From IMG/VR virus record IMGVR_UViG_3300035501_001483: a stretch of 64,000 bases of DNA; one strand, written 5' to 3'. The position numbers and the translations under genes are program-made. Shown in pieces: positions 5,420 to 63,758 of the stretch. Within the stretch, counting starts at the first letter, position 1, and each line of letters starts with the position of its first letter. This DNA comes from a virus. Its lineage: Duplodnaviria > Caudoviricetes. The notes under the pieces were generated by a model. That model searched no databases, was not told the origin of the DNA, and saw only the letters and a list, made by a program, of their open reading frames with translations.

Positions 5420-5521
5420 AACCTTTAAGAAGATACTACCAATCCCGGTAGTATCTTCTTTCAATTTGATGTCTTTTGACAACCTGGATAATCATAGAAG
5501 AAATTAAGGAAGTGAAAGCTA

Positions 5522-6532
5522 ATGGCTGATGTAGTAAATCGAAGTAGAACCTACGATGTGATGGAAATCGACCCATATGCTCCCATGCTTTATGACGATA
5601 CATATGGGGACCATGATGAAACCGTTATATCTTCGAGATTCCACTCCGATCAAGGCGGCGCTTCTCCAGCGTTGGAAGACGATATCGATTCGTTACGCAC
5701 CGCTGCACAATCCACCTTCGCCAAGAGAAAGCCCATCATTGACTGGAAGACCACCAATCAATCCTTCATCGATGTGCATAACGACTTGCGAAGGCTTGGC
5801 ATCAAAAATAACACGTTCTTCCTCAAGCTTTATGATAGAGATCTCCAAGGCGTCGATCCTTTTATGCCAAACCTGCCTCTGGAGATGCAAATCAAGGTCT
5901 ATGTGGAGTGCGTTGTCAATCCTTGGTACTATCTAAGAGAGATTGCTAGATGCCCCGCTCAAGGTAAACCCATCGAGCCAGGCGGTGGTGATCGTTATGT
6001 ACTGGATCGTAATAACCTTGCGACCTGGTATCTGTACCTGAACCATATTGACAACTATGCATCCAAGCCTCGTCAGACTGGCAAGACCCAGGATGCGCTC
6101 CACAAGGTAAACTATGCGTATCACTTCGGCTCTACTTCATCATCGGCACTACTCTTTAACAAGGACTTGGCCCTGTCCAAGGAGAACCTTGCTCGTATGA
6201 AGGACCAGCGGGATCTATATCCCACATACCTTCAGATGAGAGTGGCATTTGATGAAGAGACCGGCGGCATCATCAAGGGCGCAGACAACATCACCACGAT
6301 GAAGAATCCTGTGACCAATAATACCATCAAGGTGATGCCATGTGCAACCTCCAAGGAAGCAGCGGACCGGCTGGGACGTGGTTATACCGCCCCCATCTTG
6401 CTCTACGATGAGGTTGACTGGGAACAGCACGCCATCACTGTTATGATGGCATCCGTGTTCGCATACTCCACCGCTTCCAAGAATGCAATCGATAACCACA
6501 GTATGTCATGCAGACTTCTGCTGTCGACTCCT
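5522..6532 (+). CDS. terL: Terminase large subunit, exon 1
   Basis: Walker A PRQTGKT, Walker B LLYDE, motif III STP at the exon end. Confidence 0.9.
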
Positions 6533-6885
6533 AAACTACCACTGGGAGTCTGAGCCAGTAATGGCTCTAAGAAAATACCTCTTTAATTGCGGGAAACTCT
6601 CGCTAGGCTCAGATTACGAAGCTTATCTAGTGATGGATAAGTTGCAATGGGTAATGCCAAAGGTATCGTAATAAAATCTGAGATAGAGACAATCCGCAGC
6701 CAATGATCTCGATCGAGATAAAGGTTCATCGACTATCGAAAGGAGATTGATAACTAGAAATACTATCATGAGAACTGAGTAGAGTAGGCTTCGGCCCAAA
6801 TAGGAGGCTCCAAGTATCCTGGTTACAGGGATCTTGGATGAAGATATAGTCAGGCTTATGGGAGACCATAAGGTTAGAAATTACG
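6533..6885 (+). ncRNA. Group I intron in terL (no ORF)
   Basis: P aattgcgggaa, Q aatccgcagc, R tcatcgacta, S aagatatagtc; P1 gactccU/Gggagtc; ends in G; splicing restores STP-GDLSTRDG in frame (853-aa product). Confidence 0.92.
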
Positions 6886-8436
6886 GGTGATTTATCTACC
6901 AGAGACGGTAAAGCCATGAATGATTACATTCGTGGCACAAAAGAGCAGCGTGGCATGATGATCTGGAATGATCGTATGCTAGATGACCCTATATCGGCAT
7001 TGAAAGCAGAAGCTCAGTCTACCAAATACAACGGCATTGTCTATGTCGAGCATACTTGGCAGCAGCTGAAGCGCTCTATGGAATGGTATGAGCGTCAGTG
7101 CAACCTCTGCGGTTATAACCAGGAAGTTATCCTTCGGGAAATCAACCTGCAGAGATTGGCCGGTTCTAGCTTATGCCCCTTCACCAGAGAGCAGCAGCTG
7201 TATCTTTCTACTCATATCCATAAGCCCGTGGAAGAGATCGACGTACGCTCCAAGGATACCATGTCAACCATTAATATCTACGAGAAGTTTGATCGTCGAA
7301 TTCCCTACATCATCGGCATTGACCCGGCTGAAGGTCTGAGTGAAGATAATAACGCCATGATCGTGATCAATCCCTTCACATACAAGATTGCAGCTGAGTA
7401 TAAATGCCCCTACATCTCTCCCAAGGAGTTTGCAAAGCTTATCACTGGTTTTATGGACCAGAGATGCCCTCATGCATTACTGGTCGTGGAGAGTAACCGA
7501 GGCCGTGACCTCATTCAGCGTCTGACAGATTCTCATTATGCCAGCAGAGTCTGGTATGATAAGGATCGCATGAACCAGATTCTCACGGAAAAGACCGATA
7601 GATATGGTGGTATTCCACAGTCTGTGCTGGCTCGTAAAGTGCAGGGATTCGTCACTGGGCCTAAGAGCCGCAATCTGCTCTTCAGTTGTCTGGAGCAGAT
7701 GGTCATGGAGAATATCGACTGTATATTCTCCAAGAACCTGGTCAATGAGATGCTGACGCTTATCAGAAAACCCACCACTGGTAAGATCGAGGCCGCTCCT
7801 GGAGAGCATGACGACTGTGTCATGGCGTATCTGATTGGGCTCTATGTCTATCTTAATGCGTCCAATCTTGGAGAGTATGGTATTAGCCGCCATATGAGAC
7901 GGCCTGATGAGAAGGTCGAGAAGACCGTCGAATCAGAGAGGCAGTATCGAGACCGTGTGAAAGCAGCCATCAATGTCCTGCCTGAGCAGTATCGCGGCAT
8001 CTTTGAGGACTTTGTGCGGGAACGTGATCCTATCACGGATGCCCATCAATATGCCAAAGACCTCAGGAAGGCGGAACGAGATGACCCCTTTAATCAGTTG
8101 AAGATGACTCGTCATCGGACCATGGAAGTGGACGAAGATCAAATCTCACTGGATAAATACATGGGTCGAGATGGAACCCAGAAAGTTCCCGAGCCCAAAG
8201 TTGGCATGGAGTATTTCAAGATGGGCGAAACTCTGCAGACACCTCATTACAATTACGGCAGAAGAGACGATGCGTTGTATATTGGAGATGAACCTGACGA
8301 CACTCTCGGGGAAGAAGAACGTTTCACCTTCGAGCAGGGTATTCTGGATATGAATAGGCCACATGAAGATGAATATGGTTATCCTTCTTACGAAGATGAC
8401 GATGGGTTTACCTTCGATCCCAACGATTATGCCTAA
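6886..8436 (+). CDS. terL: Terminase large subunit, exon 2 (nuclease domain)
   Basis: IGIDPAEG, VVESN and HDDCVMA RNase H-like motifs. Confidence 0.9.
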   Translation, partial: GDLSTRDGKAMNDYIRGTKEQRGMMIWNDRMLDDPISALKAEAQSTKYNGIVYVEHTWQQLKRSMEWYERQCNLCGYNQEVILREINLQRLAGSSLCPFTREQQLYLSTHIHKPVEEIDVRSKDTMSTINIYEKFDRRIPYIIGIDPAEGLSEDNNAMIVINPFTYKIAAEYKCPYISPKEFAKLITGFMDQRCPHALLVVESNRGRDLIQRLTDSHYASRVWYDKDRMNQILTEKTDRYGGIPQSVLARKVQGFVTGPKSRNLLFSCLEQMVMENIDCIFSKNLVNEMLTLIRKPTTGKIEAAPGEHDDCVMAYLIGLYVYLNASNLGEYGISRHMRRPDEKVEKTVESERQYRDRVKAAINVLPEQYRGIFEDFVRERDPITDAHQYAKDLRKAERDDPFNQLKMTRHRTMEVDEDQISLDKYMGRDGTQKVPEPKVGMEYFKMGETLQTPHYNYGRRDDALYIGDEPDDTLGEEERFTFEQGILDMNRPHEDEYGYPSYEDDDGFTFDPNDYA

Positions 8437-21109: not shown

Positions 21110-22309
21110 ATGATTAGCATAGACTACAAGGGACACCCTAAGAAACCCTTCAAGCAACTGCTACACGAGTACACCAACACATACCTCATCCTGGATGACG
21201 TGCTTGCTAGTGAGGAGAGCTATAGCTACGTCTACCAGGATATTCTAGACATTCTCAAGTACGGTCTAGAGAAGAAGAACATTCGTGAACTCCCCATTCG
21301 TTTCAAGATCCATGATGAAGACCCTGGTGATGTGGAGCATCTGCATACCTTGCAATGCCGGCATTTCTTGTCCAACCTTGTCATGTGGTATGCCTTCATG
21401 AAGATGGAGCGCGTCGACGTGATGGACGAGTCTTACATCATTGACTGGGTTGGCAAAGATGTGAAATACATTGCGCACTACATCGACGAGATGATTATCC
21501 CCAACTACTTTGGCGATTTCCACAGTCTCAACGCCATCGTGGATGAGATCATCTTCCACATCAAAGCCATCTCCGACGCATTCTGTCTCATCTTCGGCTA
21601 CAGTGCCTCCATCTGGGACATCATGCAAGCGGAGCGTGCAGACCCCGAGATTCACGATATCATCTATGGCAATATCGATCTGAATATGCAGCCCAAGGAA
21701 CTTGAGGAATACCTCAAGGACCTCAATGAGCGTCTGATGGATCGCTTTGCCCATAGTGACAGCGACTTGCGGCCGTTGCTTCTCTCTGGCAAGAACATCT
21801 CTGCCAACCAGTTCAAGGAGATCTTCCTGAAGATTGGCTTGAAAGCAGATATGTCCAACCGCACCATTCCATGGTACATCAACAGCAATTTGCTCATCAC
21901 GGGCATCGACACGCCCGCAGGATTCTACATCTTGGCAGGATCGGGTCGTAAAGCCCTGATGGACTCCAAACTGCTGATGTCCAAACCTGGCGCTCTCTCC
22001 AAGAAAATGAATCACAGTGCTACCGCAATCATTCTTCGTAAGGATCACGAGCACTGCGATTCCACTCGTCCTGTGTATTATTACATCAAGGACGAGGACT
22101 TCCTGAAAGCGCTGGACAAGAGATGGTACTACGATGAACGTGGTAGCCTCCATCTCCTCAACTATAAGACCGATAAGGATCTGATCGGTAAGACCCTGGG
22201 CTTCAGATCCCCGTGCACATGCAGCTCCAAGGATGGCGTCTGCGAACTGTGCTACGGCACATTATTTGACATTAACGATGACCTGTTTTCACAGGGCTCG
22301 TTGGCGGCT
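21110..22309 (+). CDS. RNA polymerase beta' C-terminal subunit, exon 1
   Basis: Bridge-helix-like GRKALMDSK...PGAL; Zn site RSPCTC...CELCYG; size of spliced product (668 aa) fits an AR9-like nvRNAP subunit. Confidence 0.85.
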
Positions 22310-24294
22310 AAACTTACCCTCGGCAGCAATGCTGACAAGTTTCAATACTTGGTGGTCGCCTAAAACCGCTTGAACTGCGGGGAGGTCTCGATAAAGACAT
22401 TCAAATTACCAAGCCAGTGTGGTGACATGCTGGTGGCAAAGGGCAACGCCGGAGATATGGTAACAAGATTTGGATGAGGGATGATCCGCAACTAAGGGAC
22501 TGCTAGCCAAAATCATCGGGCAGTTTAAAGCTCAACGGCTATCGAAACGGTAACTGGGACGGTGACGCCTCAGGTAGAACGGAGTAGAGTAGGGGTTTAT
22601 TTTGAGTACGTTATCTCGTGAGCTATTTCTACTAGCAAGGCTCCTTTTAAAATGTTAAACTGAGCCATTGGTTCATCAAGTTAACGTAGAATTCTATTGG
22701 TATGAATATAATTCCAGTAAATACTTTCAGATTAGCAATGTTCTGATTATATGGAGGAATTTAATATGAATATCAATGAAGAAAACACTTTCTATCTGAT
22801 GTACGGTACGTCCGCATACTACATCACGACGGACTGCCGTATCTTTGGAACGAAGGAAGACCAGATCGTTCTGAATCCTTGGATTCAGAGAGTAAATCCT
22901 GAGCGCAAGTTCAGATTTACTGATACTCGGTATTCGACTGAACTTTCTCTCACCGAATTCATGGCATACACATTCTACGGCAAAACAGCAGCACGCGTCG
23001 CACTGCGTTACCAGGACGACGTACCTACCCTAGACAATATTATTCATATCGACCGGCCGCAATTCAAGATCCCGAACGACCGCACGTTGGTCGTATGCGC
23101 TGGCGAAGAGTATCGTAGATGCATCACAAATCCCCGTGCGAATGAGGCATTCTACATCAATCGTTATGGTGCAGTCATCCGGTCTCACGTTCGTCGAGCT
23201 GTAACAGAGTTCGAGTTCGTGCAATGGAAATATATCAATGGGTATCCGTACGTCTTCAGTCGCACTGTGCATCTTCTCGTATGGAAAGCATGGGGTGATG
23301 TAGAGCGCAGCGAAGAAACTGACGTGCATCATTCCGATGAGTGCCGCTGGAACGCCGATATTGACAACCTGCAGCTGCTTACGAAATCTGAGCATCGTCG
23401 TGTTCATGGTGGTACCAATGCTGGTAAAGCCGGAAAATACGATGAAGCAACGATTCGCCATGTATGCGAGATGATTGAGGCAGATGCGCACATCGATGAC
23501 ATCATCCAGTATCTCACTGATGGTGCGCAAGATAAGCGTAATGCCGCACGTTGCATGGTACAGCGTGTTCTCAAGGGTGGATATCCTGATGTCACATGTG
23601 ACTACGACTTCTCGAATTATCGGAAGTTCAAGGGAATCGTATTTGACGAGAGCGTCATTCGTGAGGCATGCGAGATGTTGTCGAGCAACACGCCGTATAG
23701 TGACTTGGATATCACTGCCGCTACTGGATTGAACCCTGCCTACATTGGGCAAATTCGGCACGGCAATGTGACCAATGCAGCGATTGCAGATATCGTCAAG
23801 GAGTACAAGGATAAGATTCACTGCGAAGTTCGCAAAGATGGAAAATTCAAGCCCCATCTCAGCGACCTTGATGTGCAAGAGATTCTTTCTCTTTGCATGC
23901 GTAGTAATCTCTGCAATAATGAAATTGGTGATCGTTATGGTGTATCATCTTCCACCATTTGTGGAATTCGACTTGGAGACTGCCAGGCATACAATCATAT
24001 GATTCACGGCGAGTGCCCGTGCATCTTTACGCCTAGCGAGAGAAAGTATAAAACCAGCATACTGATCGTCGATGAGAACGATCCTCGTGTCATTAGCCTT
24101 CGTGATGAGTATTACTCAAGATAAGCTTCCCAAGTGAGCGGCATTTAGGCGCATCTCTATAGGCCTTTGTATCGTCTATAGAGATGCTCTATTTGAAGAT
24201 ATAGTCTAAGTTTCTAGGAATAGGGGTAAATTCCTAGTAGGTATCTCCTACAATAAATTAAAGTCTTGAAATTTATCGGAGAACCATTGACTTA
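22310..24294 (+). mobile_element. Group I intron with HNH homing endonuclease ORF; predicted terminal nucleotide A
   Basis: P aactgcgggga, Q gatccgcaac, R tcaacggcta, S aagatatagtct; P1 ggcggcU/Ggtcgcc; P10 acttggt/accaagt. Confidence 0.88.
22766..24124 (+). CDS. Intron-encoded HNH homing endonuclease with C-terminal HTH-like repeats
   Basis: VHHSDECRWNADIDNLQLLTKSEHRRVH; lies between the intron R and S elements; ggagg SD. Confidence 0.85.
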   Translation: MNINEENTFYLMYGTSAYYITTDCRIFGTKEDQIVLNPWIQRVNPERKFRFTDTRYSTELSLTEFMAYTFYGKTAARVALRYQDDVPTLDNIIHIDRPQFKIPNDRTLVVCAGEEYRRCITNPRANEAFYINRYGAVIRSHVRRAVTEFEFVQWKYINGYPYVFSRTVHLLVWKAWGDVERSEETDVHHSDECRWNADIDNLQLLTKSEHRRVHGGTNAGKAGKYDEATIRHVCEMIEADAHIDDIIQYLTDGAQDKRNAARCMVQRVLKGGYPDVTCDYDFSNYRKFKGIVFDESVIREACEMLSSNTPYSDLDITAATGLNPAYIGQIRHGNVTNAAIADIVKEYKDKIHCEVRKDGKFKPHLSDLDVQEILSLCMRSNLCNNEIGDRYGVSSSTICGIRLGDCQAYNHMIHGECPCIFTPSERKYKTSILIVDENDPRVISLRDEYYSR

Positions 24295-25101
24295 ACCAAG
24301 TCATCAGAACCTTACTCACAAGGTCTTTTAGGTCAAAAGCACTCCCAGTTTACTACGTCGGACGAGATTAAGTTCGATGAAGATTTCTATAAGAGCTTTG
24401 ATATCGTCAATACTGAAGTTACAATGAGTGACTCTGTGGAAGACGGTCTTATGCTCCAGCTCGGCCCTGTCCAGGTTGAGGAAACCGATGATGGGGATGT
24501 CTACTATGTTGAGTATTTCGACCTGGTGGACTACAACGGTGAACTGAAAGCTCATGTCGAAGAAGAGCATAAGTTCAACCTCTATTTGTCCAAGGAAATG
24601 GAAGCTGCATGGAAGCAGTTTGGCGATAAACCTATCCCCGTGGACAAATTTGATGACGATGATGATACCACAATCCTTTTCAACATCGAAATCAAGTCTA
24701 AGAGCAATGGTCAAGGCTACACGCGTGTGACCGCGTTGCTCGACTCCAAGGACCACATGGGATACTCTGAGAACATCGATGGTATGTGCCAAGAGTTCGC
24801 GGAGACCATGCTGGATAGCGGCATTAACTACAACTTCGTGCATTATGAAATGATCATTCGCTCCATGATGCGTAAGAAGAGCAACGAGCTCGAGTATCCT
24901 GACTTCGGGCCCAATGGAGACCATAAGGATTACATCATCCTGAGATTGACGAGTTCTCTGAGTAAGAATCCCAGCCCCATGGTGCGGTTGAGCACTGGCT
25001 GGCTCAAGAAGAACCTGATCTCTACGCAGCTGTATAAGGCCCATCGGCCTTCTCATCTCGATGCGCTGTTTGTCCCTGTACTGACAGACGTCATCGACTG
25101 A
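24295..25101 (+). CDS. RNA polymerase beta' C-terminal subunit, exon 2
   Basis: Splicing gives LAA-TKSSEPYSQGLLGQKH, the trigger-loop motif; VHYEMIIRSMMR conserved block. Confidence 0.85.
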   Translation, partial: TKSSEPYSQGLLGQKHSQFTTSDEIKFDEDFYKSFDIVNTEVTMSDSVEDGLMLQLGPVQVEETDDGDVYYVEYFDLVDYNGELKAHVEEEHKFNLYLSKEMEAAWKQFGDKPIPVDKFDDDDDTTILFNIEIKSKSNGQGYTRVTALLDSKDHMGYSENIDGMCQEFAETMLDSGINYNFVHYEMIIRSMMRKKSNELEYPDFGPNGDHKDYIILRLTSSLSKNPSPMVRLSTGWLKKNLISTQLYKAHRPSHLDALFVPVLTDVID

Positions 25102-25144: not shown

Positions 25145-25564
25145 TTATTTCAGAAATGCGATCGCGATTGGATAGCCGCTCGTTGATAATTCATATACCG
25201 TTGATCCTGAAGATCCTTGCGAATTATAATATAATCCATATAGTGTGATCTGTGTGCCGCTATATATTCCACATATGGATAAATTGCCACTCACACCAAC
25301 CCCATATGAGATGGTTGCGGTTGGTAACGTTGTAATGCATGGGAAAATTACATAGTCGCCAGCTGTTCTAATCGCTGTAATAAGCGCAGTTCTTATTGTA
25401 GATGATGCAGATATTGATGATATGGATGTCCATGTGACTCCGCTACTCAATGAGTTCTTTAAAGTTACGCCAGATGATGGAACTAATGAGTAGATCTCGC
25501 ATGCCTGTCCACCTGTTGCAGCAACTGCTTGTAAATAGCTTTGAATAGTTAATCCATCTGCCAT
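25145..25564 (-). CDS. Cassette 1 ORF: AT-rich S/T/I/Y-rich adhesin-like protein
   Basis: Atypical codon usage, no SD, preceded by the conserved leader; adhesin role is inference. Confidence 0.65.
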   Translation of the reverse strand: MADGLTIQSYLQAVAATGGQACEIYSLVPSSGVTLKNSLSSGVTWTSISSISASSTIRTALITAIRTAGDYVIFPCITTLPTATISYGVGVSGNLSICGIYSGTQITLYGLYYNSQGSSGSTVYELSTSGYPIAIAFLK

Positions 25565-25770
25565 GATTTGTAAATTTGGCGCGGGCTTCCCGCGCCAGCT
25601 TCGTGTCTTTATATCTTATCGACTCTTCGTCAAATGCAATTCCGGGACTTCCAACACCACGCACTAAGCAGCAATTATCCCCGGATTCGGTCTTTCGCCA
25701 GGCCGTTGCATCCAACTTTAAGCGTCTAAGATATGGTTTTAAGCTTGAACAGTCGATCCTTGATCGACTC
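25565..25770 (-). repeat. Cassette 1 structured leader
   Basis: 91/101 identical to 54063-54163; covarying hairpins. Confidence 0.85.
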
Positions 25771-25809
25771 AAACGAGCAAAAAAAAGATGCCGCGAGGGC
25801 ATCTTCTTT

Positions 25810-26688
25810 TTAAACCATTTGCAAAGCCGCCAGCAACGTGTAGATAGTCACGTACGTCGTCCCATTCTTCAGCACTTCCTGAGAGATCACATAGTGGAAT
25901 CGCCCGCCAGATGTATCAATGTCAGGCTGGTCTACCTTGGCGATGGAGAAGATCTGGTCATTGCTCTTCAGGCCAGGGAAGAGATGCTTGGTGACTGCCA
26001 CTCTATCCCCATCCAGCGTCACAAACTCTGTGATGTCGTTGTCCAGCATGTCCTGAATGATCTCGCTCTCGATTTGCCGGAACTTCAGTCCTCTATTCAT
26101 ATACCCAACCAGGTACTGATAGGATGGATCATAGATGAGACTTTGCAACGCCTGCATGTAAGCATCTTCGCCGTCTCGTTTGCGGTTAGGCAGCTGCAGG
26201 AATGGAATCACCAGTTCGTCCTTTGCTGCGGTCTTATCCTCCCGCAGAATTAACGACTGGTTATATAGATCACCATTGCGTTCGCCCATGATCACCAACG
26301 GCTCCAACTTCGTCTTGTGGAACTCTTTCAGCTTGTCCGCTACTTCCACGGGATTGATCAGGAGCCCTCGCCAGCCAGACAGGTCGTATTGGTACTTACC
26401 CTTCTCATCAACGAAGGGCGTTACATACATGATGCGCTCCAGATACGGCACGGATGACCGCCCAGCCAAGATATAGCAGCTGGGATGTTCTGGATTGGTA
26501 GGGTCTACGTAGTAGGGCGGAGTCATCGTGCGCATCATAGACGATAACTCCGTGTTTCGATCGATGTCAATGTAGTACAGGTCAAACAGCTTGGCAGCCA
26601 TCGTGTTGATTGCTTTCATATCCATAAAGTTCTGAATTACGAAGTCCTCTCTGCTTGACAATTCGGTCGATTTGGGTCTTCTTGCCAT
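25810..26688 (-). CDS. Hypothetical protein
   Basis: ORF with SD and upstream ATATCAT motif. Confidence 0.75.
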   Translation of the reverse strand: MARRPKSTELSSREDFVIQNFMDMKAINTMAAKLFDLYYIDIDRNTELSSMMRTMTPPYYVDPTNPEHPSCYILAGRSSVPYLERIMYVTPFVDEKGKYQYDLSGWRGLLINPVEVADKLKEFHKTKLEPLVIMGERNGDLYNQSLILREDKTAAKDELVIPFLQLPNRKRDGEDAYMQALQSLIYDPSYQYLVGYMNRGLKFRQIESEIIQDMLDNDITEFVTLDGDRVAVTKHLFPGLKSNDQIFSIAKVDQPDIDTSGGRFHYVISQEVLKNGTTYVTIYTLLAALQMV

Positions 26689-32075: not shown

Positions 32076-32235
32076 AAGTCATTCAAGGAATGACTGTTTT
32101 CAGATTAAGCTTTTCAAATTTGGCCTTACAATCCCGAGTTTTCAAGGCGATTTTTAGGCTCGGAATCTGCGTAAATTTTTAAGCGGGTTTACCAGACGGG
32201 ACGGCGCACTCCGTGCGCCATTCTTTAGCACTTAA
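32076..32235 (+). repeat. Cassette 2 structured leader
   Basis: agtcattc-aag-gaatgact-gtt hairpin; 20-mer identical to cassette 4; ggcgcac-tcc-gtgcgcc hairpin before the ATG. Confidence 0.8.
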
Positions 32236-32706
32236 ATGGGTGCATGTGTTGGATTACAAACGGGTATCGCCGGCGCTGGGCTCAAATTATCACAAACTCT
32301 AAAATACAACACGACTGCACAATCGTCCATATCGGCTTGGCAAAGCATTACAATACAATCATTTGCATTTAATTCGTACTCATTTGCATTTGCTCAAATA
32401 TCGTTCCCAGCAATCACAGTTACGAAAGCATCTTGCGAATTTTATAAAGCAGCAACTCTCACATATCGTGAATGGATTAAATCTGATATTGGAACTGTGT
32501 ATATCAGCTACACTTCTAGTGGCGTAGACATAATCTCTAACAGTTCCTTTACAATCTCGGCTTTAAATCAAATTCTTCCATATAGTTCAACGTATACGTA
32601 TGGAATATCTGTAACACTCAGCAGTACAACGACAGTCGGAAGCTCGGCGTATATAACCTTTTCAATGCCGAGTGTGACATGCACCGTCAATATGTACAGC
32701 ATCTAG
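32236..32706 (+). CDS. Cassette 2 ORF: AT-rich S/T/Y-rich adhesin-like protein
   Basis: Atypical codon usage; no SD. Confidence 0.65.
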   Translation: MGACVGLQTGIAGAGLKLSQTLKYNTTAQSSISAWQSITIQSFAFNSYSFAFAQISFPAITVTKASCEFYKAATLTYREWIKSDIGTVYISYTSSGVDIISNSSFTISALNQILPYSSTYTYGISVTLSSTTTVGSSAYITFSMPSVTCTVNMYSI

Positions 32707-53825: not shown

Positions 53826-54017
53826 ATGGCACTTCCTGACGTAAACACCATTCGTGAGTACTACCTGAGTGGTAAGTGGAACGATAGAATGCTGCAGGTG
53901 GCGTTGGTCTGCAAAGCCATCACCAAGGACGATGTGGAGTCCATCAAGGCCGAGAAAGCCGCCGCTGCTGAGAAGTCTACCAAAAAGAGCAGCAAGAAGA
54001 GCAAGGCTACTACCTGA
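53826..54017 (+). CDS. XkdX-like small phage protein
   Basis: IREYYLSGKW...AITKDD pattern; aaggagg SD. Confidence 0.6.
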   Translation: MALPDVNTIREYYLSGKWNDRMLQVALVCKAITKDDVESIKAEKAAAAEKSTKKSSKKSKATT

Positions 54018-54061
54018 AAGAAGAGACGATACCTGACGGCGCAGGTATCGTCTCTTCTTTT

Positions 54062-54265
54062 AAGTCGTTCAAGGAACGACTGTTCATGCTTAAAACCATA
54101 TCTTAGATGCTTAAAGTAAGTAGAAACGGCCTGGCGAAAGACCGAATCCAGGGATAATTGCTGTTTACGCTTAGTGTTGGAAATTTCTGGAAATATATTT
54201 ACTTAATGGTTGATAGGTTATGGCTGCACACCGACTGGCGCGGATACCGCGCCAAAATACAGTTT
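54062..54265 (+). repeat. Cassette 3 structured leader
   Basis: Near-identical to the cassette 1 leader in inverted orientation. Confidence 0.85.
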
Positions 54266-54604
54266 ATGGCAAATAGTATAAGCATGAATCCATTCAATAT
54301 AACGTCGAATATAGCAAATTACAAAGGATACTGGGTAGCAGGGAGTCCTTCCAAATCAATAACTGTTACACTTAGTCCAGTTGCTATTTATGCGGTTTGC
54401 TGGGCATCGGGTCCGTTTCCTGTCTTATTCAGCAATGGATTTCCATTAGCACCTAGCGGTTCTGTATACTTTTCAACGAGCGACTCAACTATTGCAAATC
54501 CTCAGGCTTGTGCATCCATGAGCGCCACTGGTGATACAATATCATGTGCATGTTCGACGTATAAAGTATGCATAATAGCATTTATCGTAACGGATATTTC
54601 ATAA
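54266..54604 (+). CDS. Cassette 3 ORF: AT-rich adhesin-like protein (MANSISMN...)
   Basis: ATG placed by alignment with cassette 1; no SD. Confidence 0.65.
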   Translation: MANSISMNPFNITSNIANYKGYWVAGSPSKSITVTLSPVAIYAVCWASGPFPVLFSNGFPLAPSGSVYFSTSDSTIANPQACASMSATGDTISCACSTYKVCIIAFIVTDIS

Positions 54605-54668
54605 TTGCATCTCTTTAATACTCACAACCCAAAAGACAACCCTCCAAAATATAAGGAGGGTTGTCTTT

Positions 54669-55565
54669 ATGGACAAGATTTCTATTCCGGAGATGGCTTA
54701 TACGCATTCTGGCATTTTCCATGCGGATGATGTCTGTGCTTATGCCTTTCTAAGCATTATCAATCCTCAAATTACGCTGACTAGACTTACCCGCGTCGAT
54801 CAGGACGTCTGGGATCTGGTCGCACAGTCTCCTGAGAAGATCATCGTATTTGATATTGGAGGAGGCAAGTATGATCACCATACCAAAGAGACCATCGAGT
54901 ACCGTGACCAGGAGAATAAGCTCAATCCATATTCATCTTTTGGCAAAATTGTGCGGGATTTCTGGCCTTATGTGCTGAATAACGAGAAGGCGTATGAGGT
55001 CTTCGATAACAGTTTTGTGCTGGGAATCGATATGCAAGACGCATCGGGCTCCATGTGGCATGGCGTCGTGAATACGTTTTCTATGTCCATTGGTTCATTT
55101 AATGGCCTTTGGACAGAGCCGCAGTCTGATGAGTTACAGCTCAAACGTTTCAAGAAAGCCACCTCTTATGCCAAGGAAGTCATCTTGCGGTATATCGCAC
55201 GTGCCAATTCCACTGCAGAAGCCGATTCCATCGTACTAAAAGCGTTGGAGAGTAAGACGCCTGGCGCGCATCATCTGTATCTAGATAAATACGTACCTTA
55301 CGCATCCACGCTGAATCGCGTCAATGCCGATGTCAACTGGGTCATTTATCCGTCTATGCGTATCGGCTGGCAGATCTATGCCGTCGTTGATCTCCATAAT
55401 AAAGACAAGCAACTTATCCCTGAGGATATGGCAGAACGTTGGCGCAAAGATCCGGACTGCATCTTCGTGCATCCTAGCGGCTTTACGGCATGCTTTAAGT
55501 TCCCTGATAAGGCTATCAAAGCATGCATCGAATTGGACGACCTTTATGACGACTTAAACTCATGA
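54669..55565 (+). CDS. MYG1-family (DHH-like) exonuclease
   Basis: THSGIFHADD, DIGGGKYDHH, FVHPSGF. Confidence 0.88.
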   Translation: MDKISIPEMAYTHSGIFHADDVCAYAFLSIINPQITLTRLTRVDQDVWDLVAQSPEKIIVFDIGGGKYDHHTKETIEYRDQENKLNPYSSFGKIVRDFWPYVLNNEKAYEVFDNSFVLGIDMQDASGSMWHGVVNTFSMSIGSFNGLWTEPQSDELQLKRFKKATSYAKEVILRYIARANSTAEADSIVLKALESKTPGAHHLYLDKYVPYASTLNRVNADVNWVIYPSMRIGWQIYAVVDLHNKDKQLIPEDMAERWRKDPDCIFVHPSGFTACFKFPDKAIKACIELDDLYDDLNS

Positions 55566-56526: not shown

Positions 56527-57006
56527 TTATTGGAGGGTATAAAAGATAAGATCATATTGAATTTTCAATGTTACGCCAGATGATCCCAAGCTTGACCATA
56601 ACATATAATCCTCACCAGGATATGCTATAAGAGTACCAGTTGATGTTAGATTATACGTATTGGTCGTAACACTATAAATACTGCCGTTATATGCGTTGGC
56701 ATAGTACACATCAAGCCCGTTAGGATACCATGTATTACCGTCCGACGACAACTTTGGAGTCATCCTAGAGAAATGAATGTAGAAATTATTATATGACGAT
56801 ATTGAAAATGACATGTTATGAAATATAAATACGTACGTGAATGGACTGTATTGTATGAAACTGCTACTGTATAATGGTAATTGGGTATATGGTATAGCAT
56901 AATACGAAGACCCTGATTGCGCACTAACGGTGACGTTTTGAGCAACAGTAACTGATTTTATTGATACACCTAGCGTCACATCATGATTGAGAATTGCATT
57001 GCCCAT
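56527..57006 (-). CDS. Cassette 4 ORF: AT-rich S/Y/T-rich adhesin-like protein
   Basis: Atypical codon usage; no SD. Confidence 0.65.
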   Translation of the reverse strand: MGNAILNHDVTLGVSIKSVTVAQNVTVSAQSGSSYYAIPYTQLPLYSSSFIQYSPFTYVFIFHNMSFSISSYNNFYIHFSRMTPKLSSDGNTWYPNGLDVYYANAYNGSIYSVTTNTYNLTSTGTLIAYPGEDYMLWSSLGSSGVTLKIQYDLIFYTLQ

Positions 57007-57144
57007 TGAGGTCTGTGGCGACGCCGAAGGCGTCGCCCGGATGAGCCTATACGGCGCCCTACCCTGGAAATTCCGCTTAAAAATTTACGCAGGCGGGCCA
57101 ATTCCGCTTAGAAAGCTCCACTTGGAACAGTCCTTACAGGACTT
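57007..57144 (-). repeat. Cassette 4 structured leader
   Basis: agtcct-gta-aggact-gtt; 20-mer identical to cassette 2; ggcgacgcc-ttc-ggcgtcgcc before the ATG. Confidence 0.8.
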
Positions 57145-60570: not shown

Positions 60571-61941
60571 TTAAGGCAGAATGAGCTGCTGCGGGGTCTT
60601 GCACAAATCTTCTTCTGGAATAATAATCGACTTGCGTTTGCCTAGCAGGCCGCAGCAAAAATCATCTCCTTCGAGATGATCAAGATCAAGCGTTGTAATG
60701 ACATCATTGGCAGGGTCTTCGCCATACTGTGTCTGAACGAGATCCATCATATCATCCCATTGGTCTTCACCAAATGGCGGAAGGACGTCTTCGTAGGGTA
60801 GGTCATGTGAACGCGCATACATTTCAGCATCGCGCTCTTTGCGTGCTTTTCGATATGCTTTTCTGGCCTCAAGCATTGCTCGTTCACTTTCATATCCATA
60901 GTGATCGAGCTTCTTGATACGTTCTACGAGTTCATCCTTGGTATATTTTACGTATTTTGACATGTAGGTGTAACTGTCGGAGTGATCCAGATATCCATAG
61001 TAGCTCAGCATTGACATGAGTGCATGTTTACTGGCTGGTCTATTGACCTTCTTAATGGCCGTACGGATCTTGCTAAGAATAGCTTTGCGGATCGTGGTTC
61101 TATCATAAAACATGCGGAAGCCGCAGAAATCGATTCCACGAGGCGCGATGCGGAATACTTGCCAATTGCCTTTCAATTCAAGGTGGCGCTTTTCTTCGAG
61201 ATAGTTCTCGAGACGAGCACGAGTTAAGTGCAAGCGTTTCTTATTACTGTCACATATGACGAGGTCATCAACGTATCGGACATACATTCTCGCCTTTAGC
61301 TGCTCTTTGATGTAATGATCCATCGGCTCGAGGTAAAAATTGGCCAGCCATTGGGATGTATAATATCCGATAGGCAGTCCGTCCATCACGCTCATGATGA
61401 TATCATTCAGAAGAGCTAACATCTTTTGATCTTTAATTTTATGGCGCAAATCCTTCATCAGAAGGTCATGATCGACACTTTGAAAGAAGTGATGTATGTC
61501 CATCTTGAGGCAATATTTGTAATTGGTTTGAGCATGGTCGCTGCGGAGGTGTTTCTCCACATAATGCACGGCGTCAATTTGTCCACGACCAGGAATGCTT
61601 CCACAAGACCATCGATACATGCCACGATAAAAGATCTTATCGATAGCTAGAATGATAGCCCAGTGTACGATCTGGTCTGGATAAGGTTTGGGAGCCTGAA
61701 TGAGACGTAGTTTATGACTCACGCCTTCTTCAATGGTGAATGAACGCGGTGGAGCGGGTACAAATGCTCCATCACGCAGCATTTCAAGTACTGACTGTAC
61801 AACCTCGGTTTCGTGATCGATCACGTATTGAGTCTCAGGAGTAGGAGCCGATTTCTTTCTCCTCAAAACACTATAGAGCGCACGTAATAACAGAACTTCA
61901 TCTTCCATTAAATTGTAAAGGTAGCCTTGTCGCTTGGGCAT
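60571..61941 (-). CDS. DGR reverse transcriptase with C-terminal extension
   Basis: KMDIHHFFQSV, GLPIGYYTSQWLAN, YVRYVDD, GIDFCG; next to TR. Confidence 0.95.
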   Translation of the reverse strand: MPKRQGYLYNLMEDEVLLLRALYSVLRRKKSAPTPETQYVIDHETEVVQSVLEMLRDGAFVPAPPRSFTIEEGVSHKLRLIQAPKPYPDQIVHWAIILAIDKIFYRGMYRWSCGSIPGRGQIDAVHYVEKHLRSDHAQTNYKYCLKMDIHHFFQSVDHDLLMKDLRHKIKDQKMLALLNDIIMSVMDGLPIGYYTSQWLANFYLEPMDHYIKEQLKARMYVRYVDDLVICDSNKKRLHLTRARLENYLEEKRHLELKGNWQVFRIAPRGIDFCGFRMFYDRTTIRKAILSKIRTAIKKVNRPASKHALMSMLSYYGYLDHSDSYTYMSKYVKYTKDELVERIKKLDHYGYESERAMLEARKAYRKARKERDAEMYARSHDLPYEDVLPPFGEDQWDDMMDLVQTQYGEDPANDVITTLDLDHLEGDDFCCGLLGKRKSIIIPEEDLCKTPQQLILP

Positions 61942-62184
61942 GCTAATGCCTCCTTCATGGTTAATTTCGGTGTGATTATCTAATGTCGACTCGCAGTTGC
62001 CTCTTGCGCAGTCACAAGGGTAATTCTTAGAGAAACCTCTAAAGGTGTGCTAGCTTTTTCGAGAATGAACCTACTAGAGCGAGTCCTCACCACCTAATTT
62101 TTGGAACAGTGCCAAGGCAGTCAAAGCTGGTCACTAGCCCGAGCTATAGTGGGGATAGTAGCCGGAAAATGTTTTTCTTTAGAT

Positions 62185-62343
62185 GTGTCAGCAAGCCGAC
62201 AACCGAGCGCCGATGTTGGAGTTCGTGTTCGACGCCGAATTGTTCACGTTGCAATAGAGCGGGCCGGCATTCAGGTCATTGTTCCAATTGCCGCCCACAT
62301 TGCACACGTAACCGGACGAGGTGTTCAGGTACCAGTTGTCGGG
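62185..62343 (-). repeat. DGR template repeat (TR)
   Basis: 159 bp, AAC/AAT-rich; differs from VR only at adenines. Confidence 0.97.
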
Positions 62344-62540
62344 CGCCCGCTTTGTTCCGCCTGGGACTTTCCACCTCTTATAAATGTGAAATGGAAATGT
62401 CTTACCACATATGTTTATTGCACTAAAATGTACTATAAATTTACACGACTTACATTTAGCTAAGCGAATGTAATCAATCTTAGTAGTTTGGCGCGTTTTT
62501 ATGCCAAATGAACTGATGGAAGCAATTGCTCATCCTTTAT

Positions 62541-63728
62541 ATGGCAGAAGCATATGTAATTCAACCTACATTAGGCGAACCCAATATCAAGAATAAGCTC
62601 ATGGAAAACGTGTACGGCATTTGTATTGACATGACCAATACTGACCCTACATCTGCAGTGACCTACACTGAAGATGCGGTTGGTATGGAGCCATTGGCCA
62701 ATAACTCTAGCACTGGCGTGTGCTCGTATGGCGACTGGGAAGACGTGATCACCGAGGTTTTCGGTTGTGCTCCGTGCCTCTACTTAAGTGGAGCACGGTC
62801 CAAGTATCTGAAGCCCACAAACTATGCGTATGACGTCGATGGAAATTCGGTCGATATCACATCAGGTAGTGCTGGTGATGTCATGGTCGAGTTCTCCAAG
62901 TGCTGGTACCGTTGGCGGGTGAGTGGCAACTACCTGTATTTTGAGGTGACGGGCAAGGATATGTCCGGTACTTCTGGGTGGTGCTGCGAAGCCTTCAAGA
63001 CAAGTGGCGGCACGGTCAAAGACTACATGTACTATGGCGCGTATGAAGGATACGTTCTCTCTAACAAGCTCCGTTCTCTTTCCGGTAAAACTCCTACAGT
63101 AAGTACGACCATTGGTAACTTCAGAACCTATGCAACTGCAATGGGCAGTAATTACCAGCAGGAAGAAATTGCTAAGCGGATGTATATCATCGGCTTGCTG
63201 TTCCTGGTTACCAAAAGCCGGGACGGCCAAGCAACGTGCGGCAATGGCTGGGTTGGTCAAAGTGCTGCGGCAACGACCGGTACCCAAAATACTGCTGGCC
63301 TCTTCTTCGGGTCGAGCTCCAAGACCACGGTGGTCAAAGTTTTCGGCATCGAGAACTTCTGGGGTTCACTGTGGAAGTGGTGCGATGGCTTCGTAAGCGC
63401 CGGCAGCACCAGTATGTACTATAAGAGCTACGGTCCTTATAATGATACTGGTAGTGGCTATACTACAGCAACCGGTATCTATAATGGCAGCGGATATCCG
63501 AAGACCATGACGGTGCTGGGCAACGGTATCATCGCGGCAACTGCCGGTGGCGGTTCCACGACTACATGTTTCCCCGACAGCTGGTACCTGAACACCTCGT
63601 CCGGTTGCGTGTGCTATGTGGGCGGCTATTGGAACTATGACCTGGGTGCCGGCCCGCTCTCTTGCCGCGTGAACTGTTCGGCGTCGTACGCGGACTCCGG
63701 CATCGGCGCTCGGTTGTCGGCTTGCTGA
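62541..63728 (+). CDS. DGR target protein, CLec-fold receptor-binding protein
   Basis: GIENFWGSLWKWCDG and a C-terminal GGYW...GARL VR; ATG start chosen over the upstream TTG. Confidence 0.92.
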   Translation: MAEAYVIQPTLGEPNIKNKLMENVYGICIDMTNTDPTSAVTYTEDAVGMEPLANNSSTGVCSYGDWEDVITEVFGCAPCLYLSGARSKYLKPTNYAYDVDGNSVDITSGSAGDVMVEFSKCWYRWRVSGNYLYFEVTGKDMSGTSGWCCEAFKTSGGTVKDYMYYGAYEGYVLSNKLRSLSGKTPTVSTTIGNFRTYATAMGSNYQQEEIAKRMYIIGLLFLVTKSRDGQATCGNGWVGQSAAATTGTQNTAGLFFGSSSKTTVVKVFGIENFWGSLWKWCDGFVSAGSTSMYYKSYGPYNDTGSGYTTATGIYNGSGYPKTMTVLGNGIIAATAGGGSTTTCFPDSWYLNTSSGCVCYVGGYWNYDLGAGPLSCRVNCSASYADSGIGARLSAC

Positions 63729-63731
63729 CAC
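63573..63731 (+). repeat. DGR variable repeat (VR) including IMH
   Basis: 17 mismatches to TR, all at TR adenines; last 31 nt identical. Confidence 0.97.
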
Positions 63732-63758
63732 CTCATACCCTTAGGAGGGCCGAGGGGT

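Follow-up and report, generated by a model that had tools for sequence, protein, structure and literature searches.

Genomic setting of the leader

The DNA analysed here, a stretch of 64,000 nt to which we refer as the window, comes from an uncultured giant (jumbo-type) phage that is a distant relative of AR9. Its genes include those for a major capsid protein, the tail sheath, terminase, a split DNA polymerase, an NAD ligase and subunits of a multisubunit RNA polymerase, and a group I intron, a tRNA and a diversity-generating retroelement (DGR) are present as well. The capsid protein is 22% identical to those of the Bacillus phages AR9 and PBS1. A duplex with the anti-Shine-Dalgarno (anti-SD) sequence of -6 kcal/mol or below is predicted for 42 of the 66 ORFs in the window, with AAGGAGG being the typical motif.

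Several elements in the same window deserve mention in their own right. An HNH endonuclease ORF (22751-24124) separates the two parts of a split gene for the RNA polymerase beta' subunit (21110-22363 and 24424-25101); in many relatives beta' is a single gene of ~665-690 aa, and in others (matches of 410-436 aa, e.g. P0008, P0010-P0012, P0014 and P0015) it is apparently split as in the window. The group I intron (RF00028, 76.9 bits, 6523-6872) lies between the ORFs 5522-6553 and 6916-8436, the latter of which matches the terminase large subunit. The DGR occupies window positions 60571-63734 and comprises a reverse transcriptase (RT) gene on the minus strand (60571-61941), a template repeat (TR, 62182-62343) and a variable repeat (VR, 63573-63734); the TR and VR are in inverted orientation and 89% complementary, and the VR is located at the 3' end of an ORF on the plus strand (62526-63728). 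Finally, near-identical and apparently bidirectional terminators of the form AAAGAAGACUACC..GGUAGUCUUCUUUU are reused at 5428, 15637, 42724, 45273 and 60528.

Two copies of a leader upstream of unrelated genes

The subject of this study is a non-coding leader on the plus strand, which lies between a terminator and a small orphan ORF, and a second copy of it on the minus strand ~28 kb away, which precedes an unrelated gene. Each leader and its ORF form one of four cassettes in the window, and the two copies belong to cassettes 3 (C3) and 1 (C1). In 5' to 3' order both leaders consist of a 5' hairpin followed by GUU, a three-way junction of ~140 nt and a GC hairpin before the AUG. Their features are as follows:

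Cassette 3
54018..54061, + strand: intrinsic terminator of the upstream gene 53826-54017 (sequence and terminator scan)
54063..54084, + strand: module 1, 8-bp hairpin AGUCGUUC-AAG-GAACGACU and invariant GUU (pattern search)
54087..54228, + strand: module 2, three-way-junction core (MFE fold, z -2.3; comparison with C1; covariance model R1, 168.5 bits)
54236..54254, + strand: module 3, GC hairpin UGGCGCGG-AUA-CCGCGCCA (sequence and MFE fold)
54255..54265, + strand: A/U-rich spacer of 11 nt lacking a Shine-Dalgarno (SD) sequence (read directly; no purine-rich match)
54266..54604, + strand: ORF of 112 aa, Ser/Thr-rich orphan (no Pfam or PHROG match)

Cassette 1
25779..25806, - strand: intrinsic terminator of the upstream gene 25810-26688 (sequence and terminator scan)
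25748..25769, - strand: module 1, hairpin AGUCGAUC-AAG-GAUCGACU and GUU (pattern search and comparison with C3)
25598..25745, - strand: module 2, the same three-way junction (MFE -70.8 kcal/mol, z -4.4; covariance model R1, 204.3 bits)
25577..25597, - strand: module 3, GC hairpin UGGCGCGGG-AAG-CCCGCGCCA (sequence and MFE fold)
25565-25576, - strand: spacer of 12 nt lacking an SD
25145-25564, - strand: ORF of 139 aa, orphan (no homologue found)

The segment 54063-54163 aligns with the reverse complement of 25669-25769 without gaps and with 91 of 101 positions identical, a count reported in the initial annotation of this DNA that our recount reproduces exactly. The downstream ORFs are unrelated (BLASTP E 0.5), again as had been stated there. 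In a window-wide repeat search the two leaders form a single pair (I2, 112 nt, 88%), each of them pairing only with the other. Their similarity reaches, with few indels, the ATGs at 54266 and 25564 (85% mean column identity over ~280 columns of a MAFFT alignment); it is higher in the 5' half than in the 3' half, and includes an invariant block of 37 nt (54126-54162). Cassette 3 starts 1 nt past the T tract of the terminator upstream of it, and cassette 1 ~9 nt past its own. On neither strand does a reading frame persist through the leader, and a coding explanation for its conservation was rejected on this ground. The initial annotation described the ~200-nt leader as a single RNA; of its parts, only the middle domain is particular to cassettes 1 and 3, and both the initial 22 nt and the final hairpin are generic modules that recur in cassettes across the clade, as detailed below.

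Fold of the core and evidence for pairing

When folded separately, the C1 and C3 leaders adopt the same predicted architecture, namely an 8-bp 5' hairpin, a junction domain, a GC hairpin and a spacer, with the large domain being closed by long-range helices. In C3 the elements of the junction domain are:

54087-54089/54226-54228, 54096-54105/54214-54223 and 54109-54111/54208-54210, + strand: closing helices
54114-54122/54196-54204, + strand: long helix (C1 counterpart 25706-25716/25629-25639)
54127-54144, + strand: invariant hairpin
54147-54155/54183-54191, + strand: helix
54159-54163/54172-54176, + strand: G-U-rich inner helix

After two registers of the sequence alignment had been adjusted by hand, the independent folds were found to have 48 pairs in common, from totals of 59 and 63. 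Five pairs are changed on both sides with pairing kept, and seven further changes are one-sided and accommodated via G-U. The two-sided changes map to the 5' hairpin (one), the long helix 54114-54122/54196-54204 (three) and the helix 54147-54155/54183-54191 (one). The long helix, which was absent from the pairings listed in the initial annotation, displays the strongest covariation: of the 11 differences in alignment columns 0-100, five fall on its 5' strand and are matched on the 3' strand ~80 nt away, and two more constitute the compensatory pair in the 5' hairpin. The helices that had been listed are likewise present in the folds. These include a helix with UCCAGGG/UUUCUGGA in C3 and UCCGGGG/UCCCGGA in C1, with its A-U/G-C swap and G-U/G-C change (pairs 88-127 and 90-125), and a weak, G-U-rich inner helix (UGCUG/UAGUG as against UGCUGC/GUGGUG), which is thermodynamically marginal.

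We evaluated the conservation of pairing by introducing 43 random substitutions, the number observed, into C1 under three placement schemes, with 400 trials each (1200 in total). The simulated divergence left a mean of 6-16 shared MFE pairs, with a maximum of 44 in the 1200 trials, as compared to the 48 observed; likewise, a mean of 44.9 pairs remained canonical as against 53 observed. With the mutated columns fixed to those observed, the retained-pair counts were not significant (P about 0.12), because this control itself places changes on both sides of pairs. In both leader copies the sense strand gives a stabler fold than its complement, by 5.6 and 8.8 kcal/mol, and the wobble changes between C1 and C3 become A-C mismatches on the antisense strand. 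The compensatory and G-U changes, the mutation simulation and the difference in stability between the strands support selection on a sense-strand RNA fold, as had been proposed from the first alignment. Since there are only two copies, the covariation of the core amounts to one pairwise comparison, and the model of selection is to be read on that basis. Part of the similarity between C1 and C3 may also be due to recent gene conversion.

Such conversion is central to an alternative in which the locus is solely a DNA-level mobile regulatory cassette, i.e. a promoter and terminator module that spreads by recombination, in which C1 and C3 represent a recent gene-conversion tract and the fold of the core is without function. 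We regard this as unlikely. Neutral conversion fails to explain why five of 11 differences are compensated ~80 nt away in a helix, or why the wobble changes pair only on the sense strand, and the sense strand has no sigma-70-type promoter. The observations that favour it come from the exchange of cassette parts and are presented with the relatives below.

The 5' hairpin is a clade-wide module

The 5' hairpin and its GUU are found in all four cassettes of the window, the two further instances being:

32077..32098, + strand: same 5' hairpin and GUU, cassette 2 (leader 32077-32235, ORF 32236-32706)
57126..57143, - strand: shorter 5' hairpin AGUCCU-GUA-AGGACU and GUU, cassette 4 (ORF 56527-57006)

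Relative to C3, module 1 of C1 carries one compensatory U-A/A-U swap, and the leader of cassette 2 differs from those of C1 and C3 in its middle part. A pattern search for the hairpin yielded three matches in the window as against 0.02 expected, and four of the six occurrences of GACTGTT in the window lie inside cassette 5' hairpins.

Using the RNA polymerase beta' fragment 21110-22363 as a query, we recovered more than 100 metagenomic relatives (39-86% identity, contigs of up to 279 kb) and examined loci from nine of them. Ahead of similar cassettes the hairpin is found again on at least five related contigs of AR9-like jumbo phages. It is present in relatives whose beta' is 70-86% identical to that of the window and was not found in the more distant relatives examined (beta' 65% or less). 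Its clade-wide consensus is AGUC, 3-4 variable pairs, a YAAG loop and GACU, followed by GUU. Taken over 16 instances the hairpin is 93% paired, and the alignment contains 15 cells changed on both sides as compared to 4.5 +/- 1.7 in shuffles, with none of 500 shuffles reaching 15; controls in which the pairing was slid collapse. In IMG/VR the hairpin pattern gave 14 matches, none of them palindromic and all attributable to chance. As a separate observation, AAGGA, which is the SD core, spans the loop and 3' stem in 10 of the 16 aligned hairpins.

Several established types of site were considered for the 5' part of the leader and rejected. An integron attC-like site was discarded as the GTT does not pair to an upstream AAC, and a sigma-70 promoter in the conserved 5' half as no sigma-70-type site exists on the sense strand of either leader. 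The AR9 late promoter has the form AACA-N6-T-A/G on the non-template strand and ends at the start site (PMC5312081, PMC7598289). No such motif was seen by eye in the leaders and the 45-50 nt upstream of them, the nearest approach being AACC-N6-TA at 54094-54105. The leaders also have no match to the AR9 early consensus (AT-rich early box).

Because nothing else between the upstream terminator and the ORF is conserved, transcription of the cassette would start at or just past the 5' hairpin. The hairpin would thus serve either as a promoter or entry signal or, on transcripts that read through the terminator, as an RNA site. Both possible starts are upstream of the core and the GC hairpin, which can therefore form in the mRNA either way; if transcription were to start inside the core, its outer helices could not form in RNA.

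A hairpin acting in the DNA has a precedent in phage N4. The N4 virion RNA polymerase, a single-subunit giant virion protein, acts on short extruded DNA hairpins (5-7 bp, 3-nt loop). The cassette hairpin, with its 6-8 bp and its AAG or YAAG loop, is N4-like in geometry: both kinds have stems within 5-8 bp, loops of 3-4 nt centred on a purine and conserved bases just 3' of the stem, and both would lie at the start of transcription units devoid of an upstream consensus. We treat this likeness as an analogy. In contrast to N4, the polymerases of this phage are multisubunit, and no ORF for an N4-like giant polymerase is found in the 64-kb window (largest ORF 978 aa). It is conceivable, though we give it little credence, that the hairpin and GUU are a hairpin-form promoter or entry signal for the multisubunit jumbo-phage RNA polymerase, with the leaders being dedicated SD-independent translation platforms. 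If true, this would place an N4-like recognition principle in the AR9-like lineage and provide a private expression channel for orphan genes that are exchanged rapidly.

A stable hairpin at the place of the Shine-Dalgarno sequence

The final hairpin, described in the initial annotation and recovered here in both leaders (UGGCGCGG-AUA-CCGCGCCA in C3; UGGCGCGGG-AAG-CCCGCGCCA in C1), is separated from the AUG only by the SD-less spacer. At three cassette starts the anti-SD scores are +1.9, +1.3 and -1.7 kcal/mol as against values that are typically -8 to -13 for other genes; these three exclude the C3 ATG at 54266, the C3 ORF having been scored at an upstream TTG (54158). In its predicted accessibility the start region does not stand out. 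Neither GC hairpin is followed by a U tract; the sequences at this point, AAAUUUACAAAUC in C1 and AAAAUACAGUUU in C3, are A-rich.

These 3' ends bear on the idea that the leader is a stand-alone or 5'-UTR-derived sRNA of ~190 nt, which would end at the GC hairpin, exist in two gene copies and act in trans via 54126-54162. The A-rich rather than U-rich sequence after the hairpins in the window speaks against such an RNA; moreover, no target was identified, and the element never occurs apart from a downstream ORF. On the other hand, the jumbo phages 201phi2-1 and phiKZ do produce 5'-UTR-derived sRNAs via premature termination (PMC11512511). A U tract after the pre-AUG hairpin of several relatives lends it the look of a terminator, and the higher conservation of the 5' half over the 3' half would also suit an sRNA. 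On balance we hold this origin to be rather improbable.

Cassettes in relatives and the exchange of their parts

Fifteen cassettes for which an ORF was called, from the window and five related contigs, have the layout of a 5' hairpin, folded leader, pre-AUG hairpin and orphan ORF, and this layout precedes about 20 similar genes in related phages. The folded leaders span 100-245 nt, and across the 15 cassettes z is between -1.5 and -7.3. The pre-AUG hairpins are strong (8-26 bp) and end 0-17 nt before an AUG that lacks an SD, and the ORFs encode Ser/Thr-rich orphans of 74-159 aa. Within the window the leaders are mosaic, those of cassettes 2 and 4 sharing other blocks; a shared fold for these two was considered and rejected.

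Evidence of exchange comes from a locus whose flanks are near-identical in two related phages (L019, 6990-7580; L020, 6970-7580). The 5' hairpin together with 12 nt beyond it, the apex of the pre-AUG stem-loop and the initial ~8 codons have been kept, and the body of the ORF is unrelated. The pre-AUG stem is longer in one by matching 9-nt insertions in both arms. In both phages the 5' hairpin begins 4 nt past the stop codon of the upstream gene, which is annotated as Tad8. Another contig (G001; L038, 14218-15630) has three tandem cassettes exactly 433 nt apart with no terminators between them and a terminator-like hairpin plus U tract directly before each of the three ATGs, and L016 (12056-13150) likewise has tandem cassettes, two of which have no terminator between them. 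At the position orthologous to C1, the closest relative (L021, beta' 86%) has a different and shorter leader that shares only ACCAUAUCUU. The core is thus a phage-specific elaboration that has been reused for two genes and is unnecessary for the gene class.

These arrangements recall the PeSL (promoter-early stem-loop) cassettes of T4-type phages, which are ~70 bp long and consist of a sigma-70-like early promoter and a stem-loop that is the terminator (Arbiol et al. 2010, PMC2839356). As in that system, short conserved stem-loop modules are repeated before many small orphan genes and would act as recombination joints that shuffle them. Numerous dispersed copies before orphan genes with recombination between the copies, a trait of PeSLs, are seen in the four window cassettes, in L019/L020 and in G001. 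Unlike PeSLs, the leaders here are 100-245 nt long and folded, have no sigma-70 promoter, precede SD-less genes and occur in a phage that encodes a multisubunit RNA polymerase. The PeSL cassette is nevertheless the nearest described system in its logic. It is from this side that the purely DNA-level cassette gains its support: the mosaic leaders with other blocks shared by C2 and C4, the ORFs exchanged behind conserved leader ends in L019 and L020, and the tandem cassettes of G001 at 433 nt all fit it, and PeSLs are documented to mediate such shuffling (PMC2839356).

The same loci also bear on the idea of an antitermination or attenuation leader. Its 5' hairpin would be an RNA site of the nut/boxB kind, at which a phage factor is loaded onto the polymerase so that the latter passes the pre-ORF hairpin and perhaps the upstream terminator too. 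This would accommodate a small conserved hairpin with a conserved loop and 3' tail, the terminator-like hairpins directly before the AUG in relatives, the terminator-free succession of cassettes in G001 and between two cassettes of L016, and the position of the L019/L020 hairpin 4 nt after the stop codon of the Tad8-annotated gene. Set against this, the pre-AUG hairpins of C1 and C3 have no U tracts, no antiterminator gene was identified and the loop is unlike boxB. Transcription of the hairpin would, furthermore, need read-through of the strong terminators 1-9 nt upstream. We consider both parts of this proposal, the loading of a factor at the hairpin and the passage of the polymerase through the terminators, to be quite improbable.

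Searches for the core and for known RNA families

At the gathering threshold, a search of the whole window with Rfam 15 returned only the group I intron and the tRNA and no match in the leaders. At E values up to 10 both leaders gave only chance fragments of miRNAs and sRNAs of 24 bits or less; the Rfam check suggested by the initial annotation hence assigns no family to either of them. The core of C1 and C3 had no blastn match among 50,697 GenBank phages, and an exact 22-mer from it had none in IMG/VR; an exact 20-mer had three matches in JGI metagenomes, in unrelated contexts and judged to be chance. Searches with nhmmer across the related-phage loci examined, and with the covariance model R1 (175 positions, 54 pairs) over 510 kb of related phage DNA, each recovered just the two window copies. 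The proteins that flank C1 and C3, used singly as queries for related loci, recovered no relatives. The three-way-junction core is found only in these two copies within the collections searched.

This distribution is relevant to the view of the leader as a riboswitch, as a self-cleaving ribozyme or as an RNA that the DGR reverse transcriptase recognises. A three-way junction with an invariant internal block is the kind of structure that would invite such a view, as is the RT gene in the window (60571-61941). Riboswitches and ribozymes are, however, widely conserved, whereas the core is absent from all relatives searched and has no Rfam match even at E up to 10. As for the reverse transcriptase, the DGR has its own TR and VR (62182-62343 and 63573-63734), the window-wide repeat search did not match its TR to the leader, and the leaders are 6 and 35 kb away from the RT gene. 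We consider all three identities very improbable.

A probable structured leader for genes lacking a normal ribosome-binding site

In our assessment the region is probably a cis-acting structured 5' untranslated leader, a paralogous copy of which serves a second, unrelated gene. It displays the generic features of a structured cis-regulatory leader in being non-coding, folded on the sense strand with compensated changes and placed ahead of a start codon. Among the four functions that had been offered for it, only a cis-regulatory leader fits this anatomy, and a ribozyme or an RT-recognised RNA finds no support. Most likely it provides a reusable means of expression control for genes without a normal ribosome-binding site, with control of translation or stability being what we infer from the predicted structure. 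The folded leader would act in cis as a platform for ribosome loading without an SD, either of a standby type or assisted by a factor, and may protect the 5' end of the mRNA. A cis role in SD-independent loading is favoured because SD-less genes occur in a system that uses SDs and have a stable hairpin at the place of the SD. Being shared blocks, the leaders could double as recombination joints for swapping unrelated orphan ORFs. We class the element as a structured leader of the cis-regulatory kind, carried in a mobile regulatory cassette.

Long 5' leaders are known from other jumbo phages. The 5' UTRs of AR9 range from 26 to 491 nt and have unexplained conserved motifs (PMC5312081), and 201phi2-1 and phiKZ have conserved folded 5'-UTR RNAs (PMC11512511). 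The leaders described here resemble these in being long and folded, and they belong to a phage that is itself a distant relative of AR9. They differ in having no sequence or Rfam relationship to them, in lacking the AR9 promoter motifs and in being modular leaders for SD-less hypervariable genes. Outside phages, the tisB mRNA of Escherichia coli offers a parallel that is functional only: a far-upstream 5' structure is needed for loading of 30S and S1 in the absence of an accessible ribosome-binding site (PMC7708055). The highly structured 5' UTR is common to both, whereas tisB has a real but sequestered ribosome-binding site and a pseudoknot, and the cassettes have no SD at all.

The promoters and translation signals of AR9-like and phiKZ-like phages, which have their own multisubunit RNA polymerases, are poorly understood. 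The leader offers a defined and modular case in which a covarying clade-wide hairpin, a strong hairpin replacing the ribosome-binding site and a reused three-way junction can be told apart. Should it direct SD-independent translation, or should its hairpin be a promoter, fast-evolving genes would be expressed apart from the SD-led core genes, and the leader would constitute a portable expression module.

The cassette ORFs and their surroundings

The cassette proteins have no match in Pfam or PHROG. No homologue of the C1 protein was found either in an exhaustive search of 1.84 billion representatives or in a word-indexed search of 5.8 billion proteins. A profile built from 14 cassette proteins recovered one further protein, and atlas scores of 0.85 for the cassette proteins serve as leads only. 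The motif M-[DAG]-x-x-[ILV]-G at the N-terminus and an aromatic strand at the C-terminus are all that the proteins have in common.

Downstream of cassette 3, the SD of a MYG1-like gene (54669-55565), AAGGAGGG, lies within the 3' arm of a terminator-like hairpin (region 54633-54668), which ends 3 nt before the ATG of that gene. With the SD inside this hairpin, there may be coupling between the termination of cassette 3 and the translation of the gene that follows. Finally, all 15 cassette ORFs examined (from the window, L015-L024 and G001) begin with AUGG, their second codon specifying Ala, Asp or Gly.
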